A stretch of DNA of 64,000 bases, taken from the NCBI RefSeq assembly GCF_965247905.1, contig NZ_OZ252047.1, forward strand, positions 2,073,304 to 2,137,303, in the 5' to 3' direction. This DNA is from Candidatus Spongiihabitans sp. (GTDB lineage Bacteria > Pseudomonadota > Gammaproteobacteria > Arenicellales > Poriferihabitantaceae). Below are positions 14,957-54,363 of the stretch, piece by piece (within the stretch, counting starts at the first letter, position 1; every line of letters starts with the position of its first letter). The notes under the pieces are model-generated. The model saw nothing but the letters and a program-made list of their open reading frames with translations. It did no database searches and was not told where the DNA came from. Position numbers and translations under genes: made by a program.

Positions 14957-15322
14957 AGGAGTCCGGCTACGCCGGACGACATATTTTAACTGGATTCCCG
15001 CCTGCGGCGAGAATGACGGGCTGGGGGGACAAGGGTGAATCGGAAGGCGATGATTTCTTTTGAGAAGACAATGGTAAATAAGTGTCACGCAAAGCGTGAC
15101 ACTAAAACGTGCTCTATTACCTATAATCCGTCATTGCCCGGCCCATATTATTATTATTGGCCGGGCAATCCAGTTATTAAACCGTTCGGCGTAGCCGAAC
15201 TCCTTTGCGGCGAAGCCGCGCTGTTTGTGTCTGGCAAAGCCGTATGCCAAAAAGAGTCACGCTACGCGTGACAGATATTTAACTGGATTCCCGCCTTCGG
15301 CGAGAATGACGAATAAGAGTCG

Positions 15323-22972: not shown

Positions 22973-24835
22973 CTATAAGTAAAACGTATTCAGCATAGCC
23001 ACGACAATGAAGATAAACATGATGGTCATGATGCTGCCGGCCTTGAGGAAATCAGCGACCTGATAACCCCCGGGGCCCATGATCAAGGCATTCACCTGAT
23101 GGGTAGGAATAAGGAACGAATTGGATGTGGCCAGCGCAACGGTCAGCGCAAACACGGCCGGATTGGTGCCGGCCCCGATTGCGATATTGATGGCCAACGG
23201 AACCAACAGCACGGTGGCCCCGACATTGGATATGATTAGCGTAAATAATGAGGCCAGGATGGCGATGGCGGTTTGCAACATCCAGATTGGCACGCCATCG
23301 AGATAGAACAAAATTTGTTGCGCAATCCAGGCGGCGGTGCCGCTGTTTTCCACCGCAATGCCAAGCGGAATCAAACTGGCGAGCAGAAACACGCTCTGCC
23401 AACCGATGGCCCGATAGGCTTCTTCAATCTTGATCACTCCGCTCAGAATCATACCCACCGCCCCGCTCATCAACGCAACGGATAAACGCACATCGGTGAA
23501 GATGATCAGGAATAGCGTAAGCGCAAAAAACCCGGTCGCGAACTTAAGTTTTTGCGGTCGTTCATCTTCTCTTGGAAAGTCGGTCACCACAACAAAGTCA
23601 TGTCTGGCATCCGCGATTGAACTCAGATTACTCCAGTTAATATGCAAGACCAAGGTGTCCCCGGATTGCAGCACGAGCTCAGGAATACCGCTATCAATAA
23701 CGTCATCGGCGCGAAAAACAGAAAGCACCGTGGCGTCATAGCGCTTCCTTAATGCAACTTCCCGCAACGATTTGCCGATCAGCGATGAGTCCGGCGGGAT
23801 GACCACTTCCGCAATTCCGGCGCTGCTTGAACTGAGTACATCAGCGAATACATCCATTTCGTTTTTCACATGTAGCGCGTATTCCCTGGCAAATTCATAC
23901 ACCGCGTCGCGGCGGCCCATAATCGCCATTTCGCTGCCAGCCCAAAAATCGGTATCGCCGCGCGGCGCGACCACCAACTCATGGCCATTTCTGATTGCAA
24001 CAATCCATCCGGCGCGGCCGGCTGCGTCTATTTCCGAAAGCGTGCGCGATATTAATGGGCTTTCCTTGGTCACGACGCATTCATAGACCTCGCCCTCAAT
24101 GCCATAGACTTCCCGAAAATATTTCAGCATGTTGCCGGATTCGCCCGGCTTATCCTTGATTACCGGCAATACAAAACGTCCAAGAAACACGAAATAACAA
24201 ATTCCGCAAAAAAGCAATGTCAGTCCGATGGGCGTGACCGAAAACATGCTGAATTGCTCCACGACCACTGAGCGGTCCGGCATCGCCTGATTGGAGTTTT
24301 CAATCAGGTCATTGAGCAAAATCAATGGACTGGAACCCACCATGGTTATCGTGCCGCCCAAAATCGCGCAAAACCCCATAGGCATGAGCAGCCTGGAAAT
24401 CGCCAGGTTTCCTCGACGCGCAATCCGATTGACCACCGGCAAAAATAATGCCGCGGCGCCAATATTTTGCAGAAAGCTGGAAATCAATCCCACCACGCTG
24501 GACAGAATCATGATCACCCGGCCTTCCGTATTGCCGCCGATTTTAAGAATTTTGTTGGCCAGTTTGCCCATCACGCCGGTACGATCCAGGCCGGCGCCGA
24601 TAATCATTACCGCAATGATGGAAATAACCGCGTTGCTGGAAAATCCGCTGAACAATTGGCTCGAAGAAACCATGCCATCGTAGCCGGGAATGAGCGCAGT
24701 CAATCCAATTAACACCATCACTGAAACCGCCGCGACATCAATTCTAACAACTTCAAAAGCAAACAAGCAAATGACCAAAAGCAGAATCGCCATAACGGCG
24801 CCCATTTCGGCGGTAAGTTGCAGGCTTTCAGTCAA
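22973..24835 (-). CDS. SLC13-family permease with two TrkA-C domains
   Basis: FSGFSSNAVI, GGTITMVGSSP, central TrkA-C repeats (SPLISRTL / SSLIGKSL), SNSFLIPTHQVNALIMGPGGY. Confidence 0.9.
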   Translation of the reverse strand: MTESLQLTAEMGAVMAILLLVICLFAFEVVRIDVAAVSVMVLIGLTALIPGYDGMVSSSQLFSGFSSNAVISIIAVMIIGAGLDRTGVMGKLANKILKIGGNTEGRVIMILSSVVGLISSFLQNIGAAALFLPVVNRIARRGNLAISRLLMPMGFCAILGGTITMVGSSPLILLNDLIENSNQAMPDRSVVVEQFSMFSVTPIGLTLLFCGICYFVFLGRFVLPVIKDKPGESGNMLKYFREVYGIEGEVYECVVTKESPLISRTLSEIDAAGRAGWIVAIRNGHELVVAPRGDTDFWAGSEMAIMGRRDAVYEFAREYALHVKNEMDVFADVLSSSSAGIAEVVIPPDSSLIGKSLREVALRKRYDATVLSVFRADDVIDSGIPELVLQSGDTLVLHINWSNLSSIADARHDFVVVTDFPREDERPQKLKFATGFFALTLFLIIFTDVRLSVALMSGAVGMILSGVIKIEEAYRAIGWQSVFLLASLIPLGIAVENSGTAAWIAQQILFYLDGVPIWMLQTAIAILASLFTLIISNVGATVLLVPLAINIAIGAGTNPAVFALTVALATSNSFLIPTHQVNALIMGPGGYQVADFLKAGSIMTIMFIFIVVAMLNTFYL

Positions 24836-24884
24836 ACTATGTATTCCAATTGTTATCGCTTGATTATTATGCAGCCGAGTCTCG

Positions 24885-24912
24885 ATTTATCCCGTGAAAT
24901 TTATCCCGTGAA
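24885..24912. repeat. Perfect 14-bp tandem duplication, intergenic
   Basis: atttatcccgtgaa x2. Confidence 0.9.
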
Positions 24913-25086
24913 ATTGGTCTTTGGAGCAGACCGCCACCGACACCCCATTCCTGACCCATTCTATCACTATCCGAATAGATTGTCAGATTTTGCCGCAAAA
25001 ACAAAAACGAGACATAAAATGGGAAACAAAAAACGTTGCCGCTTAAATTTATCCGCCACAAAAAATATCAGTCGATATTGCCCTAA

Positions 25087-44198: not shown

Positions 44199-44347
44199 AT
44201 CGTTTTTGTCATGATGAAAAAATCGGCTGTTGTTGAATGTGAAGTTGAATGTGAAGTTAAATCCCAAATGGAATACGACGACTAAACAGTCTAATCAATC
44301 CGCCCGATACACGCAACGGCATCCACCATCATTCCGTCCCCCGCCTC

Positions 44348-44495
44348 GTCATTCCTGCGGAAGCAGGAATCCAGTTGATCATCCGTCCCGCGTAGCGGGA
44401 CACATCACCGACGTGGTGTGGTGTGGCGACGCGGTCACGGTGGTGCGGCTAAAGCCGCGCAGGTCTTACTGGATTCCTGCTTCCGCAGGAATGAC
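44348..44495. repeat. REPIN-like unit: two 27-bp REP-like hairpins in perfect inverted orientation
   Basis: gtcattcctgcggaagcaggaatccag (44348-44374) and its exact reverse complement (44469-44495). Confidence 0.9.
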
Positions 44496-44672
44496 GGCGG
44501 GGGTGGCGAAGGCGGTGACGGCGTAACACCACCGCCGTTGGCATCGTCACCGTCGTCTCGACCGCGACGACAACCGCGACCGCCGCCGTGGTCGGCCGAT
44601 TTTTGCTCCTGCAAAATCGGCACTTCCGCCATCCCTGGCGGTCGTGTCCCACTGCGCGGTACGAATGTTTCA

Positions 44673-44796
44673 CTGGATTGCGCGTATCGTCCCTGATACG
44701 CGTTCTGGCGAACTCGCTGCGCTCGCGAAAAATCGCTCCTGGCGATTTTTTCCAACTCCTGTTTTCACAGGGGTGACGTTCTTTAGTTGGAATGAC
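44673..44796. repeat. REP-like hairpin interrupted by a ~71-bp mini-element (44680-44750)
   Basis: ctggatt [insert] tccaac...gttggaatgac; insert is similar to 53903-53973. Confidence 0.75.
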
Positions 44797-44845
44797 GACG
44801 GGGGGTGTGAAGGGCGGGAATGACGGCGGCCTAGCGTCCCCGCCC

Positions 44846-44875
44846 GTCATTATCGGGCTTGACCCGATAATCCAG
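44846..44875. repeat. REP-like hairpin of the same GTCATT...AATCCAG family
   Basis: gtc-attatcggg-cttga-cccgataat-ccag. Confidence 0.85.
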
Positions 44876-45196
44876 TGAAAAACCCAGCGGCGGCAGCCGC
44901 TGACATTACCTGGCAGCGGGGCCGGCGCTCGCTCAACTGCGGGCCGGTTTTGCTTCTGCCAAACCTCGCCTGCCGCAGCCGGTCATGCTCATCCGTCATT
45001 TTCGCATGTGTTCACTCATGCGCTGACAGTATTGTAATGGCGGGAAGAGGTGCCAACGGTTTCTGAACTTACGCCGGCGGTCTTAATGCGGGCGGCGGCA
45101 TCTATCCGATATTGAACTTTTGTCGATTTTTGAGGTATTTCAAATTGATGTTACACTGCCACTCATATTTAATAAAACTAACAATGTATAGGGTTT

Positions 45197-47884
45197 ATGT
45201 CCAGTAACGAGACGCACACCGACACCGATGCGACCGAAACCAGTGAATGGCTTGATGCGCTTTCGTCGGTCATCGAAACACAGGGGCACGAACGCGCGCA
45301 TTTCTTGATTGAATCGCTTATTGATACGGCGCGTCGGTCTGGCGCCCATATCCCGTATCGAGCCAATACTGCTTATTTAAATACTATCCCGGTTCATCAG
45401 GAACAGCCCAGTCCTGGGGATCACGGCCTGGAAAGGCGAATTCGCGCGCTGATTCGCTGGAATGCGATGGCCATGGTGGTCAGAGCGAACCGCATCTCGT
45501 CCGAGTTGGGCGGACACATTGCCAGTTTTGCGTCTGCCGCCACTCTTTATGACGTTGGATTTAATCATTTCTGGCGGGCCAGCGTGTCTGGACAAGACGG
45601 TGCCGAACATTTGGGCGATATGCTGTTTATTCAGGGACATTCTGCGCCGGGAATTTATGCACGCGCCTATCTGGAACGACGGTTGAACAAAGAAGATCTG
45701 AGATTATTTCGCCAAGAAGTGGATGGCGCTGGTCTGTCCTCCTACCCCCACCCCTGGTTGATGCCGGACTTCTGGCAATTTCCCACGGTCTCTATGGGGC
45801 TCGGTCCGATTATGGCGATCTATCAGGCGCGTTATATGAAGTATTTGCATAATCGTGGATTGATTGACGCCAAGGATCGGAAGGTATGGGCATTTCTTGG
45901 TGATGGCGAAATGGATGAACCTGAATCCACCGGTGCGCTTGCGATTGCTGGCCGGGAAAACCTGGACAACCTGATTTTTGTAGTCAACTGCAACCTGCAA
46001 CGGCTGGATGGGCCGGTGCGCGGCAATGGAAAAATTATTCAGGAGTTGGAACGCGATTTCCGTGGTGCTGGCTGGAATGTGATCAAGGTAATTTGGGGAG
46101 GGTATTGGGACAAATTGTTACAGCGCGACGACAAAGGATTACTCAAGCAACGTATGGAGGAAGCGGTTGATGGCGAGTATCAAGCTTTTAAAGCCAATGA
46201 CGGTGCCTATGTGCGGGAAAAATTCTTTGGTGCCAACCCTGAATTAAAAGCAATGGTCGCCAATATGACCGACGACGATATTTGGCGGTTGAATCGGGGC
46301 GGACACGACCCGCATAAAATCTACGCCGCCTATCATGTCGCAACCCGGCATAGCGGTCAGCCAACAGTGATTCTGGCGAAAACCGTAAAAGGTTATGGCA
46401 TGGGTGAAGCCGGCGAGGGGCAGAACACCACGCACCAACAAAAGAAAATGGGGGAAGAATCCCTGCTGGCATTTCGCGATCGTTTTAATATTCCCTTGAC
46501 CGATGAAGAAGTCGCCAAAGCGCCGTTTTATCGCCCGGAAAAAGACTCGGCAGAGACCCAATACTTACTGGCTCATCGAGAAAAATTAGGCGGATTTCTA
46601 CCGGCACGCCGAAGTCTGAGCGCGCCAGCACTTAAATTGCCGGCGCTGTCAATTTTTAAATCTCAGTTGGAGGGCACCGGTGCTCGAGAAATTTCCACCA
46701 CCATGTCATTCGTGCGCATCCTCTCCGCTCTGGTGCGAAACAAGGAACTTAAAAATATTATTGTTCCAATCATCCCCGATGAATCACGCACCTTTGGCAT
46801 GGAGGGCATGTTTCGGCAATTGGGAATTTATTCTCCCAAAGGGCAGTTATATGAGCCGGTGGATTCCGAGCAGTTGATGTTTTACCGCGAAGATAAAAAT
46901 GGGCAAGTGCTGCAGGAGGGCATCAATGAAGCGGGCGCCATGTCATCGTGGATTGCGGCCGGCACGGCCTATAGCAATCATGATATATACACCATCCCGT
47001 TTTACATTCTCTATTCCATGTTCGGCTTTCAGCGTATCGGTGATTTATGTTGGGCCGCTGGCGATAGCAGAGCGCGCGGATTCATCATGGGCGGCACCGC
47101 CGGGCGAACCACGCTGGCGGGTGAAGGTCTGCAACACCAGGACGGGCATAGCTTAATCCTGGCGGCAACGGTGCCCAATTGTATTTCCTACGATCCGACT
47201 TATTGCTACGAGTTGGCAGTCATCATCCACGATGGTATGCGGCGCATGTATCAGCAGCAGGAAAGCGTTTATTACTACATTACCGTAATGAATGAAAACT
47301 ACACCCACCCTGAAATGCCAAAAAATGCTAATGAGGGCATTCTGCGCGGCATGTATTTACTCAAGCAGGTGGGTAAAAAGAAAAATAAAAACAAAGTGCA
47401 ATTGCTGGGCAGCGGCACCATATTAAGGGAGGTCGAAGCTGCCGCACAAATGCTGGATACAGAATTTAGCATTAGCGCGGACCTTTGGAGCGTGACCAGT
47501 TTCAATGAATTAACCCGTAACGGGCAGGATGTGGAGCGTTACAATCGGCTGCATCCCGATGAAAATCCGAAACAAAATTATGTGGAAATGTGCTTGGGAA
47601 ACACCGAAGGCCCGGTGATTGCCGCAACCGATTATATGCGATTGTATGCCGAGCAAATTCGCGCCTTCGTGCCGCGCCAGTATTATGTGCTGGGCACCGA
47701 CGGTTACGGCCGCAGCGACACCCGCCAGCAGTTGCGAAAATTCTTTGAGGTGGATCGTCATCATGTGACGGTGTGTGCATTGAAAGCGCTGGCCGACCAG
47801 GAAGCCGTAACCAATCAACAAGTTGAACAAGCCATCGCCAAGTATGGCATCGACCCGGAAAAACCCAACCCGGTAACGGTGTGA
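45197..47884 (+). CDS. aceE: Pyruvate dehydrogenase E1 (homodimeric)
   Basis: GGHIASFAS, YPHPWLMPDFWQFPTVSMGLGP, GDGEMDEPES, GRTTLAGEGLQHQDG, LGTDGYGRSD. Confidence 0.98.
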   Translation: MSSNETHTDTDATETSEWLDALSSVIETQGHERAHFLIESLIDTARRSGAHIPYRANTAYLNTIPVHQEQPSPGDHGLERRIRALIRWNAMAMVVRANRISSELGGHIASFASAATLYDVGFNHFWRASVSGQDGAEHLGDMLFIQGHSAPGIYARAYLERRLNKEDLRLFRQEVDGAGLSSYPHPWLMPDFWQFPTVSMGLGPIMAIYQARYMKYLHNRGLIDAKDRKVWAFLGDGEMDEPESTGALAIAGRENLDNLIFVVNCNLQRLDGPVRGNGKIIQELERDFRGAGWNVIKVIWGGYWDKLLQRDDKGLLKQRMEEAVDGEYQAFKANDGAYVREKFFGANPELKAMVANMTDDDIWRLNRGGHDPHKIYAAYHVATRHSGQPTVILAKTVKGYGMGEAGEGQNTTHQQKKMGEESLLAFRDRFNIPLTDEEVAKAPFYRPEKDSAETQYLLAHREKLGGFLPARRSLSAPALKLPALSIFKSQLEGTGAREISTTMSFVRILSALVRNKELKNIIVPIIPDESRTFGMEGMFRQLGIYSPKGQLYEPVDSEQLMFYREDKNGQVLQEGINEAGAMSSWIAAGTAYSNHDIYTIPFYILYSMFGFQRIGDLCWAAGDSRARGFIMGGTAGRTTLAGEGLQHQDGHSLILAATVPNCISYDPTYCYELAVIIHDGMRRMYQQQESVYYYITVMNENYTHPEMPKNANEGILRGMYLLKQVGKKKNKNKVQLLGSGTILREVEAAAQMLDTEFSISADLWSVTSFNELTRNGQDVERYNRLHPDENPKQNYVEMCLGNTEGPVIAATDYMRLYAEQIRAFVPRQYYVLGTDGYGRSDTRQQLRKFFEVDRHHVTVCALKALADQEAVTNQQVEQAIAKYGIDPEKPNPVTV

Positions 47885-47893
47885 TAAAAATCA

Positions 47894-49264
47894 ATGGCTG
47901 AAGTAAAGGTTCCAGATATTGGTGATTTCGATGCGGTTGAAATCATTGAAATTTTGGTGAATATTGGGGATACGGTTGCCGCAGAAGACCCGTTGCTGAC
48001 CCTGGAAAGCGACAAGGCGACCATGGACATTCCGGCGCCGGGCAAGGGTACCATCACCGCTATTAGTGTTGCCGTTGGCGATAGCGTATCCGAAGGCATG
48101 GTGATCATGCACATTGATACTGTCGGCGATACTGTCGGCGAAGTTGCTGACCCAGCACTTCAAAAGCAGGAAGCTCAAAAGCCAGCCGAAAAAGAAGTCC
48201 AAACAGCCGACATTAAACAACCCGCTAATGCGGTTGTGGAAACGCTGGTAACTCAAGTACATTCTCCGGCACACTCCCCGGCTTCCATCTCGCCCGCTGC
48301 AATGGAAAAATCCGACGGCGCACTTCATTCCAATCGGCTACATTCCAACCCGCCTCATGCCAGCCCGGGGGTACGCAGGTTTGCCAGAGAACTTGGTGCA
48401 GATTTAGGTCAAATCGGCGGTAGCGGGCCGAAAGCGCGCATCCTTAAACAGGATGTCATCGCCTGGGTTAAATCATGCGTCAAACAAAAACTCTCATCGC
48501 CAACCCCCGCCAGTGAAACCACCGGCGCTGGAATCCCGCCCATACCTGAAGTCGATTTCTCCCAGTTTGGAGAAATTGAAACCATTAAGTTATCCCGGAT
48601 TAAAAAATTATCCGGTCCCCACCTGCAACGCGCTTGGTTAAATATTCCGCATGTTACGCATCATGATGAAGCCGATATTACCGAACTCGAGCAGTTTAGA
48701 AAGTCGTTAAAAAACGAAGCGGAAAAAGACGGCATACGAATCACATTGCTGTCATTCGTAATGAAAGCAATGGTTGGCGCGCTAAAAAAATATCCGAATG
48801 TCAATGCATCCCTTGCGGTCAACGGCGAGGAACTAATATTAAAAAAATATTACAACATCGGCATAGCGGTGGACACACCCAATGGACTTGTAGTCCCGGT
48901 AGTCCAGGATGTCGATCGAAAAAGTGTTTTTGATTTGGCGCGAGAGATGGCCGACATTAGCCAACGATCGCGCGCCGGGAAACTAAAACCTGATGACCTT
49001 AAAGGCGGATGCATCAGTATTTCCAGTTTGGGCGGCATTGGCGGAAGCGCTTTTACACCTATCGTCAACGCGCCGGAAGTCGCTATCCTCGGCGTCTCAA
49101 GGGCGAAGATGATGCCGCTGTGGAATGGAGAATCATTCGACCCCCGACTAATCTTGCCGCTGGATTTATCTTACGATCATCGCGTCATTGATGGGGCGGA
49201 AGCGGCCAGATTTGTCGCCTATCTCACTCAATCTTTTGGGGATGTCCGCAGACTATCTCTGTAA
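47894..49264 (+). CDS. aceF: Dihydrolipoamide acetyltransferase E2 with one lipoyl domain
   Basis: LESDKAT lipoyl site, HASPGVRRFARELG, catalytic SYDHRVIDGA. Confidence 0.97.
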   Translation: MAEVKVPDIGDFDAVEIIEILVNIGDTVAAEDPLLTLESDKATMDIPAPGKGTITAISVAVGDSVSEGMVIMHIDTVGDTVGEVADPALQKQEAQKPAEKEVQTADIKQPANAVVETLVTQVHSPAHSPASISPAAMEKSDGALHSNRLHSNPPHASPGVRRFARELGADLGQIGGSGPKARILKQDVIAWVKSCVKQKLSSPTPASETTGAGIPPIPEVDFSQFGEIETIKLSRIKKLSGPHLQRAWLNIPHVTHHDEADITELEQFRKSLKNEAEKDGIRITLLSFVMKAMVGALKKYPNVNASLAVNGEELILKKYYNIGIAVDTPNGLVVPVVQDVDRKSVFDLAREMADISQRSRAGKLKPDDLKGGCISISSLGGIGGSAFTPIVNAPEVAILGVSRAKMMPLWNGESFDPRLILPLDLSYDHRVIDGAEAARFVAYLTQSFGDVRRLSL

Positions 49265-49311
49265 GCCCTGTCTCTATAAGATAAGTGCCAATTTGTTAGC
49301 AGCCCTTATTT

Positions 49312-51054
49312 ATGACCAATCTGATTGAAATTAAAACTCCTGATTTGGGCGAGTTTGAAAACGTCCCCATCATCGAAATTTTTGTACAAGTTGGTGATGT
49401 CATAGCGACAGACGACCCTCTGGTCGCCATAGAAAGCGATAAAGCCACAATGGAAATCCCCGCCAGCCATAGCGGTGTCATTAAGGAAATGAAAATTGCG
49501 GTCGGCGATGCAATTTCCTCCGGTCAAGTCTTGCTCGTGGTCGAGTCGCGCGGCACCAGCGTGACGAAAAAAGTCGCGGATGAAATCGCCGATGAAGTCG
49601 CCGTGACGAAAGAAGTCGCACCCAAAACCGCGAAAGGGAATGGCGATAAGCATGCCGCGTTGGTGGTATTGGGCTCGGGACCAGGTGGCTACACCGCCGC
49701 ATTCCGCGCCGCGGATTTGGGGCTTGATGTTATCTTGATCGAGCGCCATGAAAATCTCGGCGGGGTTTGTCTCAACGTGGGCTGCATCCCGTCCAAAGCG
49801 CTGTTGCATGTCGCAAAAGTGGTCACCGATGCCGCCGATGCCAAAGCCATTGGACTTGACTTTGCACCGCCCACGGTGGACCTCAAGCAAACGCTTAAAT
49901 GGAAAAACGGCATTGTCAATCAGTTGACGCAAGGGCTGGCGGGTTTGGCCAAAAAACGCAAAGTCACGGTGATTCATGGCTTGGGGCAATTCATAAGTCC
50001 AAACAGGATTGAAGTCGCTTCCAACTCGGGCGCTGAAACCGTCTCCTTTGAACAGGCCATTATCGCGGCCGGCTCGCAACCGATTGAAATACCGGGCTTC
50101 CCCCATGCTGATCCAAGGTTGCTGGATTCAACCAGCGCATTGGCGCTGGACGACATCCCTGAAAGGCTGCTGATTGTCGGCGGCGGCATCATTGGCCTGG
50201 AAATGGCGACCGTATATCATGCGCTGGGCAGCAAAATCAGCGTCGTGGAAATGCTGGCTGGACTGATGGCCGGCGCCGATGCGGACTTGGTGCGGCCGTT
50301 GCAAAAACGCATCAAGCACCAGTACGAAAACATTTGGCTAAAGACCAAAGTCACGCAGATGAAAGCGCTGAAAAATGGCATCAAAGTCAGTTTTGAAGGC
50401 GACCAAGCGCCGGAGAATGAAACCTTTGGCAAGGTGCTGGTGTCGGTTGGCAGAACGCCCAATGGCAATAGAATAAATGCACAAGCGGCCGGTGTCAGCG
50501 TTTCAGAGCATGGATTTATCGCGGTTAATGATCAACAACAAACCAATATTCCGCATATCTTTGCCATTGGCGATATAGTGGGTCAGCCCATGCTAGCGCA
50601 CAAAGCGGTGCATGAGGGCAAGGTCGCTGCCGAAGTCGCGGCCGGACTGAACAGCGGGTTTGATGCCAGAGTGATTCCGAGCGTGGCTTATACCGATCCA
50701 GAGGTAGCATGGGTTGGTGTCACCGAAGCCGAAGCCAAAGCGCAAGGTCTGGACTATGGCAAAGGCGTTTTCCCCTGGGCCGCCAGCGGTCGATCTCTGT
50801 CTCAAGGCCGTCGCGACGGCGTGACCAAACTTCTTTTTGACAACCATACCCATAGAATCATTGGCGCCGGAATTACCGGCAGCAATGCTGGGGAACTTAT
50901 CGCCGAAGCCACGCTCGCCATTGAGATGAATGCGGATGCTGCGGATATTGGATTGTCGATACACGCCCACCCTACCCTGGCCGAAACTTTGGGCTTGGCT
51001 GCGGAAGCGTTTGAAGGCACGATTACTGATTTGTATCTGCCGAAGAAAAAATAA
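49312..51054 (+). CDS. lpdA: Dihydrolipoamide dehydrogenase with an N-terminal lipoyl domain
   Basis: IESDKAT lipoyl site, GSGPGGY, GGVCLNVGCIPSKAL, GGGIIGLE, HAHPTLAE. Confidence 0.97.
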   Translation: MTNLIEIKTPDLGEFENVPIIEIFVQVGDVIATDDPLVAIESDKATMEIPASHSGVIKEMKIAVGDAISSGQVLLVVESRGTSVTKKVADEIADEVAVTKEVAPKTAKGNGDKHAALVVLGSGPGGYTAAFRAADLGLDVILIERHENLGGVCLNVGCIPSKALLHVAKVVTDAADAKAIGLDFAPPTVDLKQTLKWKNGIVNQLTQGLAGLAKKRKVTVIHGLGQFISPNRIEVASNSGAETVSFEQAIIAAGSQPIEIPGFPHADPRLLDSTSALALDDIPERLLIVGGGIIGLEMATVYHALGSKISVVEMLAGLMAGADADLVRPLQKRIKHQYENIWLKTKVTQMKALKNGIKVSFEGDQAPENETFGKVLVSVGRTPNGNRINAQAAGVSVSEHGFIAVNDQQQTNIPHIFAIGDIVGQPMLAHKAVHEGKVAAEVAAGLNSGFDARVIPSVAYTDPEVAWVGVTEAEAKAQGLDYGKGVFPWAASGRSLSQGRRDGVTKLLFDNHTHRIIGAGITGSNAGELIAEATLAIEMNADAADIGLSIHAHPTLAETLGLAAEAFEGTITDLYLPKKK

Positions 51055-51057
51055 TTT

Positions 51058-51069
51058 GGGTCATGACCC
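51058..51069. promoter_or_regulatory. 12-bp perfect palindrome between lpdA and the MMPL gene (candidate operator or hairpin)
   Basis: GGGTCATGACCC, flanked by aaataa and ttattt. Confidence 0.3.
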
Positions 51070-51092
51070 TTATTTATTTCAGGTAATTTTCA

Positions 51093-53435
51093 ATGGAGCA
51101 ATTCGCAATCAAGTGGGGAAGTTGGGTCACCCGTAATCGAATCCTGACGCTGGCGCTTTCTTTGATGCTCGCCATGGCGGCCGCTTCCGGCGTTCAGTTT
51201 CTGGGATTCACCAATGATTATCGCGTGTTTTTTTCTGGTGATGATCCGCATTTGCTGGCCTTTGAAAACCTGCAAAGCACCTATACAAAAAACGATAATG
51301 TTTTATTTGTTATCGCGCCTGATGATGGCAAGGTGTTCACCCGCGATACGCTGGCGGCGATTTCGCAGTTGACCGATCGCGCTTGGCAGACGCCGTTTTC
51401 GATCAGGGTGGATTCGCTGTCAAACTATCAGCACACCGAGGCGCAAGGCGATGACCTGATAGTGGCCGATTTGTATGAAGACGCCGACTCCCTGAGCGCT
51501 GCCGACCTGGCGCACATTCGCGCCATCGCGGTCAACGAGCCTTTCCTGGTGCATCGCCTGATCTCCGCGGATGCTCATGTTGCCGCCATTAATATTACGG
51601 TCGAGACCCCAGGAATTGATGAAGCCACCGAAGGCCCCCAGGTTGTTGAGCATGTTCGGGCGATGCGAAGTTATGCCGAGCAAGCCTATCCAAACCTGAA
51701 CATTTACCTGACCGGCATCATGATGATGAACCAGGCCTTTCCGGAAGCCTCGTTATACGACATGACCCATCTGGTGCCGGCCGCTTTCGCCCTCATCCTG
51801 TTTCTTGTATTCCTGCAGTTAAGGGGATTTAGCGGCACGCTGGCGACCTTCATCACCATCGCGCTTTCCATCGTCTCGGCAATGGGCATGGCCGGCTGGA
51901 TGGGCATTAAACTGACCCCGCCGTCGATGTCCGCACCCACAATTATTCTGACCTTGGCGGTCGCGGACTGTGTGCATGTCCTGGCCAACTGGCTGCAGAA
52001 ATACCGCGGCGGGATGGACAAGATCACGTCCATGGCGGAAAGCCTGAGAATCAATTTCAGCCCGGTCTTGCTGACCTCGGTGACCACCGCCATCGGCTTC
52101 CTGTCCCTGAATTTTAGTGATGCCCCGCCGTTCGGCGACCTCGGCAACATCGCCGCAATGGGCGTTTTGTTTGCCTGGTTCTACGCTATGACGCTATTGC
52201 CTGCTCTGGTTACGTTACTGCCTGCAAGTACCAGGAAGGGCCGGGCTTACGGCGGTGAAATAATGAACACGTTTTCAGGCTGGGTGATTCGCCGGCGCGC
52301 TATGCTGATGCCAGTGGTCAGTTTAGTGATTGTTGGCTTGGTATTGTGGATTCCAAAAAACCAGTTAAATGATATTTTCGTCAACTACTTCGATGAGCGC
52401 ATCGAGTTTCGCACCGACACCGATTTCGTTGTGGACAATCTGACTGGCATGTATTTCATCGATTATTCACTGAATGCCGGGCAGTCCGGCGCAATTTCTG
52501 AACCGCGCTACCTGCAACAGGTGCAACAATTCACCGACTGGCTGCGGCGGCAGCCCGAGGTCATTCATGTCAATACCGTGACCGATGTGTTCAAGCGCAT
52601 CAACAAAAGTATGCATGGCGATGATCCATTCTGGTACGCGTTGCCGGAACAACGCGAAATGGCGGCGCAGTATCTGCTGCTGTACGAACTGTCCCTGCCC
52701 TATGGCTTGGACTTGAACAATCAAATCGATATCGATAAACAACGCACACGGCTGAGCGCCACGCTTAAAACCTTGTCCACAACGAATACCCTGGCTTTCG
52801 AGCAGCGGGTAAGTCTTTGGCTGCAGCAGAACACGCCGGAAATTCACACCATCGGCGCCAGCCCAACCATCATGTTTTCCCATATCGGCATGCGCAACAT
52901 TATCAGTATGTTAGGCGGCACCGCGTTCGCGCTGGTGGCAATATCGTTGTTGCTGATGCTGGCGTTCGGCTCGGTGCGGTATGGCTTGCTGACCTTGCTG
53001 CCCAATATCGCCCCGGCGGCGATGGCGTTCGGACTGTGGGGCATCGTGGACGCCGAAATAGGTTTGGGTTTGTCGGTTGTTACGGCAATGACGCTCGGCA
53101 TCGTGGTCGACGACACCATCCACTTCATGAGCAAATACTTGCGCGCGCGCCGCGACCAAGGTCTGGATGCAATCGAAGCGGTTGGTTACGCATTTTCGAC
53201 CGTGGGCATTCCGTTATGGATTACCTCGGTGGCATTGGCCGCCGGCTTTTTGGTGTTAGCAACTTCTTCGTTTACGTTGAATGCGGAGATGGGCTTGTTG
53301 GTCGCTATCGTGATCATGTTCGCCCTGATCGTTGATTTCCTGTTGCTGCCGACCTTGCTGATTCGATTCGATCGATGGTTGATTGGCGCAACGCGGAAAA
53401 ATTCAGAAATCGAGGCCACCGCCCAGTCGGCATAA
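51093..53435 (+). CDS. MMPL/RND-family exporter
   Basis: Two repeats of TM + periplasmic + 5 TM; LAVADCVH, LLTSVTTAIGFLSL, GIVVDDTIHF. Confidence 0.9.
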   Translation: MEQFAIKWGSWVTRNRILTLALSLMLAMAAASGVQFLGFTNDYRVFFSGDDPHLLAFENLQSTYTKNDNVLFVIAPDDGKVFTRDTLAAISQLTDRAWQTPFSIRVDSLSNYQHTEAQGDDLIVADLYEDADSLSAADLAHIRAIAVNEPFLVHRLISADAHVAAINITVETPGIDEATEGPQVVEHVRAMRSYAEQAYPNLNIYLTGIMMMNQAFPEASLYDMTHLVPAAFALILFLVFLQLRGFSGTLATFITIALSIVSAMGMAGWMGIKLTPPSMSAPTIILTLAVADCVHVLANWLQKYRGGMDKITSMAESLRINFSPVLLTSVTTAIGFLSLNFSDAPPFGDLGNIAAMGVLFAWFYAMTLLPALVTLLPASTRKGRAYGGEIMNTFSGWVIRRRAMLMPVVSLVIVGLVLWIPKNQLNDIFVNYFDERIEFRTDTDFVVDNLTGMYFIDYSLNAGQSGAISEPRYLQQVQQFTDWLRRQPEVIHVNTVTDVFKRINKSMHGDDPFWYALPEQREMAAQYLLLYELSLPYGLDLNNQIDIDKQRTRLSATLKTLSTTNTLAFEQRVSLWLQQNTPEIHTIGASPTIMFSHIGMRNIISMLGGTAFALVAISLLLMLAFGSVRYGLLTLLPNIAPAAMAFGLWGIVDAEIGLGLSVVTAMTLGIVVDDTIHFMSKYLRARRDQGLDAIEAVGYAFSTVGIPLWITSVALAAGFLVLATSSFTLNAEMGLLVAIVIMFALIVDFLLLPTLLIRFDRWLIGATRKNSEIEATAQSA

Positions 53436-53440
53436 ATTAA

Positions 53441-54335
53441 GGTTCAAGATACTTTAAGCGGTCGATTTCGGATAGATTTTAGCAGATATTGACACCTGTT
53501 TTCGTGGCGCATATTGAAGCGAAACTCACACTCTTTCAAAGGAGTCCGGCTACGCCGGACGACATATTTTAACTGGATTCCCGCCTGCGGCGAGAATGAC
53601 GGGCTGGGGGGACAATGGTGAATCGGAAGGCAATGAGTCCTTTTGAGAGGACAATGGTAAATAATTGTCACGCAAAGCGTGACACAACCGGCGGCTACGC
53701 CACTCTGGATTCCCGCCTGCCGGCGAGAATGACAAATGAGGGTCGTCATTGCCCGGCCCATATTATTATTGGCCGGGCAATCCAGTGGAATATGCCGTCC
53801 GGCGTAGCCGGACTCATTTGCGGCGTAGCCGCCGGTTTGTGTCTGGCAAAGCCGGATGCCAATAAAGAGTCACGCTACGCGTGACAGATATTTAACTGGA
53901 TTTGCGCGTATCATCCCTGATACGCGCCCTTCGGGCTCGCTTCGCTCGCGAAAAATCGCTCCCAGCGGTTTTTTCCGCCTTCGGCGAGAATGACGGCAGG
54001 GAGGGCGATTCTTTCCGCCTGCCGGCGAGAATGACGGCCGAGAGGGCGGCGCTAAAACACCGCCGGAAAGGAACAAAACGGGCAATGAATTAGTGAACAC
54101 ATACGCTCGCATTGCCCGGCGATGTGTTGTCTGATTTGAGTATACAATCGGCTGGTCGCCGGGCCAGAGATGCCGGTGTTTTGTGCGACTTTGCAAGCCT
54201 CGATATCAAGGCAAAACAGCCGTGGAATCGCCCTGAATTTATTCTCCGAAATTCGGCAGCGAATGACATGCTTGTTTTTAATTTATAGAACAATTCGTTA
54301 TGACCATTTCACTATACCTTAAAGTATCTTGAACC
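53441..54335 (-). mobile_element. IS1595-derived MITE, copy 3, 895 bp
   Basis: Same 18-bp TIRs at 53441-53458 and 54318-54335; TSD TAAATTAA at 53433-53440 and 54336-54343; transposase C-remnant 53444-53539; N-remnant about 54100-54282 with ATG changed to ATT. Confidence 0.93.
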
Positions 54336-54363
54336 TAAATTAATTCATTCCAAAGGAGGAAAA

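Follow-up and report, generated by a model that had tools for sequence, protein, structure and literature searches.

Based on the analysis of a 64,000-nucleotide window (the whole stretch of DNA examined, C1:2073304-2137303) in the single-contig 3.03-Mb genome (G000, 51% G+C) of a sponge-symbiont gammaproteobacterium, we describe a strongly structured intergenic unit of 65-80 bp, whole copies of which are inserted in one orientation directly 3' of a run of T residues. Two copies are found in the window, and a profile search of the genome recovered about 55 units at 38 loci, divided into five subfamilies. The target is W-T-T^C, a T-run before C, and not the repetitive extragenic palindrome (REP) as such. 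Tentatively, and with somewhat less than an even chance of being right, we regard the unit as a non-coding, non-autonomous module that would move as hairpin-recognised single-stranded DNA (ssDNA) by means of a putative enzyme acting in trans. A preliminary description of the window had proposed a site-specific, non-autonomous passenger that targets REPs; this interpretation was right in kind, as the unit is non-coding and specific in orientation and position, but it was too narrow on the target and is unproven on the mobiliser.

Copy A (positions 44680-44751 of the window, plus strand, 72 nt, subfamily A) reads GCGCGTATCGTCCCTGATACGCG...GGCGATTTTTT and was matched by nhmmer with E = 7.5e-21. 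It stands directly after CTGGATT (44673-44679, plus strand), the left foot of its split host hairpin with the target ...ATT^, and directly before CCAAC...GTTGGAATGAC (44752-44796, plus strand). The latter is the remainder of the same hairpin, made up of CCAAC, a 27-nt nested insert, GTTGGAAT and GAC, and is a REP of the NTS/SRM (Ssn-related motif) type when read on the complementary strand. Copy B (53904-53974, plus strand, 71 nt, subfamily B) is preceded by CTGGATT (53896-53902, plus strand), the left foot of host hairpin B, and by an extra T at 53903. It is followed by CCGCCTTCGGCGAGAATGAC (53975-53994, plus strand), i.e. CCGCC-TTCG-GCGAG-AATGAC, in which alignment with the paralogues showed one C fewer than in the empty copies (CCCGCC). 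The host hairpin stems of both copies run to the AATGAC end, and both REPs are split at ATT^CC. Two homologous copies of about 71 bp behind CTGGATT, without a long target site duplication, had been reported before, and indeed no duplication beyond the T-run was present at either copy. The 23-mer and 20-mer cores occur within the window only at copies A and B and in none of 100 shuffles. The two copies belong to different subfamilies, with GTTC-TGGC-GAAC as the middle hairpin in one and CCC-TTC-GGG in the other, which excludes the earlier concern that they might stem from one duplicated larger block.

Insertion was evident from the comparison of filled and empty sites. Copy B lies in a miniature inverted-repeat transposable element (MITE), and six other genomic copies of this MITE lack exactly this segment and read AACTGGATT followed immediately by CCCGCCTTCGG. 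In the alignment the empty GGATT^CCCGCC is set against a filled GGATT-T-unit-CCGCC, so that the two differ by 71 nt and, in addition, by either a C-to-T substitution or a missing C. One of these six uninterrupted paralogues is the hairpin at 15283-15310 (plus strand, CTGGATT followed by CCCGCCTTCGGCGAGAATGAC), which had rightly been named as an empty host. Since six MITE copies are without the unit, it must have entered one MITE copy, and the proposed three-level nest (unit in REP in MITE) is genuine for copy B. The host hairpin of copy A, including its 27-nt insert and GTTGGAAT, continues uninterrupted after CTGGATT at about 12 loci and is filled at 5-7. For the unit at 1445615-1445685 the orthologous site in G001, G002 and G004 is empty and reads G GATTTTTT G, whereas here GATTTTTT is followed by a 72-nt unit, which starts with GCGCG and ends with GGCGATTTTTT, and then by CGG. 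A further genome of the Arenicellales (G051) showed an empty site, GGGAGATT followed by CCCGAGG, with many filled counterparts.

The flanks of the units follow a simple rule. Distinct non-tandem left flanks, 60 in total and drawn from several genomes, all had T at positions -1 and -2 and either A (29) or T (31) at position -3, and the first base after the T-run of the unit was C in about 59 of 61 cases. In this genome 22 of the 38 loci are CTGGATT-type REP feet, and the other 16 (42%) are T-runs elsewhere, namely after terminator-like hairpins, in a Correia-like MITE, at unique intergenic sites and at the 3' T-run of another unit. It had been stated beforehand that the idea of a REP passenger would suffer if copies were mostly outside REPs or at variable positions; the majority are in REPs, the position relative to the T-run is fixed, and the target is the T-run and not the REP as such. 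The filled REP classes have stems starting with CC (CCCGCC, CCAAC, CCGTGT and CCTGCT, with about 285 empty copies), and 336 hairpins that follow ATT with a different stem, 255 of ATT-GCCCGG and 81 of ATT-ATCGGG, are never filled. In a sea-cave metagenome-assembled genome (MAG; G050) the unit follows CGTCATT, the other foot of the same hairpin type; as units occur after CGTCATT as well as after CTGGATT, what is read is ATT^CC and not an asymmetric tag.

Each unit consists of a hairpin at the 5' end (hp1), a variable hairpin in the middle (hp2) and a hairpin formed by an A-run and a T-run (hp3), of which the T-run is the 3' terminus. There is no coding capacity. Its two termini, GCGCGTATC... and ...GCGATTTTTT, do not form inverted repeats, and the only flanking repeat is the T-run of variable length. 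In copy A, hp1 (44680-44703, plus strand) is folded from GCGCGTATC, a GTCCCT loop and GATACGCG; hp2 (44702-44713, plus strand) from G-TTC, TGGC and GAA-C; and hp3 (44728-44751, plus strand), which forms the 3' end, from AAAAATCGC, TCCTG and GCGATTTTT plus a T. Comparison of 92 distinct units from several genomes showed that both the stem and the loop of hp1 (GCGCGTATC, RTCCYT, GATACGCGC) are practically invariant. In hp2 the pairs covary, with pair 24-34 being CG in 72 units and TA in 15, and pair 25-33 being CG in 78 and TA in 13. Likewise, one pair of hp3 was found as TA, AT or CG in 33, 12 and 10 units, i.e. with compensatory changes. Folded as ssDNA, copies A and B each form their outer hairpins, hp1 and hp3, and the z-scores relative to shuffles are -4.4 and -4.2. 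The folding and covariation check that had been called for was thus positive for the outer hairpins as folds and for hp2 and hp3 as covarying stems, while hp1 is invariant and hp2 is missing from the centroid folds of both copies and is supported by its compensatory changes.

Units are also found in tandem arrays of up to five with a 72-bp period (e.g. 2264789-2265138 and 947477-947754), and some arrays contain unlike units (e.g. 293232-293446). In the arrays at 947477-947754, 2264789-2265138, 348557-348693 and 987167-987289 the inner units end with GGCGAAGTTTT and the last unit ends with GGCGATTTTTT, and the recurrence of this pattern at several loci suggests growth by slippage at the dimer junction or from one source variant. 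In the composite at 1313401-1313560 a unit lies reversed after the T-run of the complementary hp3, and so-called E-type copies are located at 346864, 350847, 1148340 and 987167. Both are explained by the palindromic nature of hp3, which offers a T-run on both strands and so permits reverse entry before the A-run of another unit. Three further observations concern hp1. Some units are interrupted within it by an element of about 45-50 nt (e.g. ggctttggcttcctgcgtcgctctacctccgccgtccatggcg, with TCGTC on both sides), namely at C1:789113-789176, 987167-987478 and 1148340-1148404, and a comparable interrupter was seen in the metagenome relatives L167 and L172. In the sea-cave MAG (L050:162-193) hp1 is present alone, as GTCATT-GCGCGTATCATCCCTGATACGCGC-AATGAC, and replaces the REP stem-loop between the ATT and AAT feet. 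Finally, the junction of the hp1 loop and 3' arm is C(C/T)TGATAC in all copies, and its T version contains CTTGATA, which we take to resemble the CTTG^ATA nick-site consensus of HUH proteins of the pC194/phiX174/IS91 type and which may be a coincidence. Such a nick site was set aside, as the mapped boundary of the element is 5' of hp1 and not within it. Mimicry of Xer/dif was rejected as well, the chromosomal dif (1690060, at the skew maximum) being unlike hp1.

A conserved structure could also point to a function in RNA or in cis, for instance as a small RNA that starts with hp1 and is terminated by hp3, or as an insulator or bidirectional terminator, with the spread being secondary. The 3' end is indeed a hairpin plus a T-run, UCC(C/U) motifs are present in both loops, the structure is conserved with covariation, and the unit at 969181-969244 is kept at the same site in three species (orthologues L136 and L137), which indicates that it is old. 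This unit lies about 100 nt upstream of a solute-binding-protein-like open reading frame (ORF), its substitutions partly preserve the pairing of hp1, and it may have been co-opted. For the family as a whole, however, we consider a functional RNA or regulatory module very unlikely. The orientation towards neighbouring ORFs was unbiased (20 co-oriented and 23 opposed, based on crude ORF calls), there is no room for a promoter, hp3 was not flagged in a simple terminator scan, and tandem arrays, inverted self-nests and insertion into other repeats are the behaviour of selfish DNA. A covariance-model search of window positions 44400-54200 against Rfam 15 (E <= 1) gave no match apart from an unrelated weak hit. 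Copying by way of RNA is also unlikely, because reverse transcriptase is absent from most unit-rich genomes.

The distribution of the unit is sporadic. In the genus of this genome the copy numbers are 44, 5 and 2 in three species and zero in four others, and in a second genus four species carry it (95 copies in G055, 63 in G050, 45 in G051 and 12 in G052). Elsewhere in the class, 2 of 400 sampled genomes contained the element. Exact copies of hp1 were confined to MAGs carrying the labels Candidatus Poriferihabitaceae, Arenicellales or Candidatus Spongiihabitans, to a MAG from a sea cave and to a single Xanthomonadaceae MAG. Related units that share the hp1 core occur in contigs from environmental metagenomes as well, some of them in tandem arrays or beside REPs, and distant metagenome relatives retain the CGTATC-RTCCYT-GATAC core with changed hp2 and hp3. 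A scan of JGI metagenomes with the 21-base hp1 gave no match; with a shorter core, related units were found together with many chance matches within genes. No copy was found in phage or viral contigs or in plasmids.

Taken together, the asymmetric anatomy with a hairpin at each end, the oriented insertion 3' of a short sequence and the lack of a duplication place the unit closest to the IS200/IS605 type. In the mechanism that we tentatively favour, the element would move as folded ssDNA, and hp1 would be recognised by a trans-acting enzyme, possibly not a Y1 transposase, that cuts or joins behind TT, as in the "peel and paste" elements of IS200/IS605 and in their PATE (palindrome-associated transposable element) and REPIN derivatives. 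Across orders hp2 and hp3 drift but the stem and loop of hp1 stay the same, which speaks for a protein that recognises the sequence of hp1. The ATT^CC feet of NTS/dRS3-like REPs, and the unit's own 3' end on either strand, offer sites for such a process, which accounts for the tandem arrays and inverted self-nests. Once within a REP, the unit might also reach other REPs of that class through copying by short homology.

Several observations weigh against this mechanism. The two end hairpins differ from each other in both stem and loop, unlike the two similar end hairpins of IS608. Elements of the IS200/IS605 family are usually biased to the lagging-strand template; here 24 of 38 loci were on that template, which was not significant (p = 0.14), and many copies ride inside other mobile repeats. 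Microhomology in the form of the T-run is found at every junction, the subfamily correlates with the REP class (A with CCAAC, B with CCGCC), and the recent copy B repeats the subfamily-B junction with one C missing. In addition, neither this genome nor 99 loci from relatives contained a longer parent with the ends of the unit, such as the IS110/Piv or HUH/RAYT element for which a search had been recommended. Matches to hp1 or hp3 alone (203778, 576877, 578954, 652952, 1261349, 2173906 and 2176490, together with the 99 loci of relatives) were truncated, interrupted by repeats or located beside ordinary genes.

The search for a mobiliser, in which co-occurrence with the units was tested for five gene families (Y1/RAYT, IS110, reverse transcriptase, DUF559 and Ssn-type GIY-YIG), was no more favourable to the proposed mechanism. 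The Y1/RAYT domain PF01797 is absent from the unit-rich G050, G051 and G052, and in this genome the RAYT-like genes have a REP of their own on their flanks, GGGTCAGAGTAGAAA, which is unrelated. Reverse transcriptase is absent from the unit-rich G050, G051, G052 and G055, and the DUF559 nuclease is absent from this genome, G050, G051 and G055. IS110 is absent from G055 and G050 and is abundant in G006, which has no units. The RAYT-like Y1 genes (221-237 aa; C1:14736-15443, 24218-24931 and also 2143464-2144129) have an inverted repeat of their own, GGATTAGGGTCAGAGTAGAAA, in 11-25 copies genome-wide, and a 235-aa RAYT-like type is common to G000, G002, G004 and G055.

The IS110 result bears on a further explanation, in which the unit would descend from an insertion sequence (IS), of the IS110/IS1111 (bridge-RNA) family or of another kind that targets REPs, and would be a miniature form of it mobilised in trans. 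REP/dRS3 hairpins are known targets of IS110-family elements and of Neisseria Nf phages, both of which do without inverted ends and long duplications. A core of 2 nt, TT, would be compatible with most junctions, and 13 IS110 copies in G051 adjoin CGTCATT hairpins. The known targeting of such hairpins without inverted ends is also cited in PMC11893778. Nevertheless, this explanation is most improbable and largely refuted by the absence of co-occurrence. In this genome IS110 is represented by one remnant, which contains a stop codon; G055 has 95 units and, like G050, no IS110, and G006 is free of units despite its 20 IS110 copies. Mapping of five copies of the G051 element gave ends (CGTCATT...TTGCCGCC) that are also unrelated to those of the unit, which counts against the proposed mechanism as well. 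The G051 element itself (loci L131-L135) is 1.25 kb long with a 330-aa frame, starts with CGTCATT 8-10 nt after a GAATGAC hairpin foot, and appears to target the NTS-like hairpins of that genome.

Part of the evidence fits better with copying that is assisted by homology than with free transposition, in particular the correlation of subfamily and REP class together with the junction of copy B. An explanation without any dedicated enzyme would be that units are copied by template switching during replication or by short-homology gene conversion. A nascent end within a T-run, possibly stalled at a hairpin, would re-anneal to the A-run beside a distant unit, copy as far as the T-run of that unit and return; between REPs of the same class the REP arms would add homology. 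T-runs flank every unit, so that any copy is a possible donor, and T-run microhomology is present on both sides of every junction, with the full 8-mer GATTTTTT flanking the insert at 1445615-1445685. The junction of copy B, GGATTT...TTTTTTCCGCC, equals that of other subfamily-B copies, while the empty paralogues read GGATTCCCGCC. Furthermore, left and right flank types are shuffled among the units of G055, and none of the four mobiliser-type families tracks the element. As a full account we nevertheless find this rather doubtful. It leaves the proliferation of one 70-nt sequence among many T-run-bounded segments unexplained, and equally the invariance of the hp1 stem and loop across orders amid the drift of hp2 and hp3. 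At REP sites no more than 2-3 nt of microhomology are available, and still the boundaries are exact in 60 of 60 contexts, and the ATT-GCCCGG and ATT-ATCGGG REPs share ATT but are never filled. Both processes may operate, with insertion at a T-run followed by spread among REPs of the same class, and copy B may have been copied by short homology from another filled REP and not transposed.

A similarly doubtful prospect, which retains an enzyme, is an ssDNA mobilisation system that has not been described before. In such a system a protein that is neither Y1 nor IS110 nor a reverse transcriptase would read hp1 (CGTATC-RTCCYT-GATACG) and join the unit after any W-T-T. If so, the unit would represent a 70-nt transposon without terminal inverted repeats (TIRs) and without duplications that occurs sporadically among marine bacteria and nests in hairpins of the NTS/dRS3 type, MITEs and its own copies. 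In one variant the mobilising protein would be a paralogue of the Ssn-like single-strand nucleases, and the spread of repeats would then be among the functions of this newly described nuclease family.

The host hairpins have the layout CGTCATT-stem-loop-stem-AATCCAG, which is the design of the Neisseria dRS3/NTS and of the wider Ssn-related motifs, and CTGGATT occurs 1502 times in the genome compared to 370 expected. We identified two Ssn-like (cd10448-like) GIY-YIG genes of about 95 aa (PYVYIM..NGTLYIGVTS..), at C1:472125-472343 and 1312906-1313124. Both are flanked by GTCATT...AATCCAGT hairpins, and the second adjoins a dense repeat cluster which includes units. In Neisseria, ssnA is flanked by such hairpins and SsnA cuts ssDNA about 3 nt 5' of CGTC (PMC11893778), and Neisseria intergenic mosaic elements (NIMEs) are arrays of dRS3 separated by more than 100 families of RS elements of 19-214 bp (PMC1797815). 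The units could accordingly be seen as NIME-like mosaic modules, exchanged at the REP foot by a site-specific recombinase or nuclease, e.g. by Ssn-type GIY-YIG nicking and homing-like repair from a filled REP. This would be in line with the NTS/SRM type of the host hairpins, with the hairpin-flanked genes and the unit cluster beside one of them, and with the interleaving of dRS3 and RS elements in NIMEs, and homing would account for the correlation of subfamily and REP class and for the junction of copy B. We nonetheless judge it unlikely. The reported SsnA cut is not at ATT^CC, units are found at either foot (CTGGATT here, CGTCATT in G050), 42% of the loci are outside REPs, and the unit separates one hairpin from its flank and does not lie between two complete dRS3. 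Small Ssn-type GIY-YIG genes were present in 16 of 16 genomes tested, with or without units, and are therefore not discriminating; at the loci fetched from seven other genomes (one each) no unit was seen. When the unit was compared by eye with the SRM motif HGTCWYN(0-2)YYVSBRH... (PMC11893778), GCGCGTA did not fit YYVSBRH, even where CGTCATT precedes hp1 in G050.

The surroundings of the two window copies are themselves rich in repeats. The spacer of about 800 bp that contains copy A (44229-45050) is filled with repeats. As a whole it is missing in G002 and G004, where the orthologous intergenic region measures about 90-140 bp. The CCAAC...GTTGG hairpin exists in a short form with a TTTC loop and in a long form, in which the loop carries a hairpin-bearing insert of about 27 nt, CCCTGTTTTCACAGGGGTGACGTTCTT. 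Besides the window (44757-44783), these hairpins were found at about 17 other sites genome-wide (e.g. C1:445812, 656016 and 728919), and the 27-nt segment represents another mini-insert at a fixed REP position. The MITE that hosts copy B (53441-54335, no strand assigned) is 895 bp long, has perfect 18-bp inverted ends, GGTTCAAGATACTTTAAG, and is bounded by an 8-bp duplication, TAAATTAA, at 53433-53440 and 54336-54343. It starts 5 bp past the stop codon of a gene for a 782-aa membrane transporter, has more than 10 paralogues in the genome and is missing at the orthologous site in the two sister species G002 and G004. An origin of this MITE from IS1595 had been proposed together with the nest, and this part was not confirmed, since a Pfam search of the MITE remnants gave no match and no transposase remnant.

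In many symbionts the intergenic regions are filled with small hairpin repeats, and for few of these, the dRS3/NTS/NIME system of Neisseria not being among them, has the mode of multiplication been explained. The unit described here has unusually clean boundaries, with both paralogues and sister species offering empty sites beside filled ones, a simple rule of TT before C, and one invariant hairpin that resembles a protein recognition site. Its spread in genomes without the usual suspects thus provides a tractable handle on the enzyme or replication accident that moves mini-elements without TIRs. NIME-like nesting, which was thought to be genus-specific when described in 2007, exists outside Neisseria. 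For annotation, the element explains the tandem arrays with a 66-72-bp period and the "split" REPs in genomes of sponge symbionts. It will be relevant mainly to research on mobile DNA and the NTS/Ssn system.

In comparison with known systems, the unit is unlike a MITE of a DDE transposon, as it has neither terminal inverted repeats nor a target duplication of fixed length. It resembles the pneumococcal BOX, the enterobacterial BIME (bacterial interspersed mosaic element) and the Correia elements (CREE) in being intergenic, strongly structured and modular, with a variable number of middle units and nesting with other repeats. BOX and Correia elements, however, have defined inverted ends or TA duplications, whereas the unit has neither and follows a strict W-T-T^ junction. 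Repeated insertion at one fixed position of a REP is shared with IS1397 and ISKpn1 (IS3) and with IS621, ISPa11 and ISPpu9/10 (IS110/IS1111), but these are coding elements of 1.2-1.5 kb, and the unit has 70 nt, no coding parent that could be found, and the REP as one of several T-run contexts. With the NIME and NTS repeats of Neisseria it has in common the design of the host hairpins, the hairpin-flanked Ssn-like genes and the interleaving of short modules with hairpins in variable arrays. Unlike a NIME RS element, the unit has ...ATT as its left neighbour and a hairpin stem as its right one, and 16 of the 38 loci are without such a hairpin; the known Ssn cut 5' of CGTC also differs from the position of the unit at ATT^CC.

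With regard to IS200/IS605 elements, PATEs and REP/REPIN, the unit differs in that its two end hairpins are dissimilar, that there is no coding parent and no Y1 gene with its ends, Y1 being missing from three unit-rich genomes, and that a clear lagging-strand bias is lacking. It differs also in that its T-run target resembles its own 3' end, so that it nests in itself. The features in common with these elements are an asymmetric build without TIRs or target duplication and with a hairpin near each end, insertion in one orientation directly 3' of a short fixed sequence, and short copies without genes, which number tens per genome and show compensatory changes in their stems.

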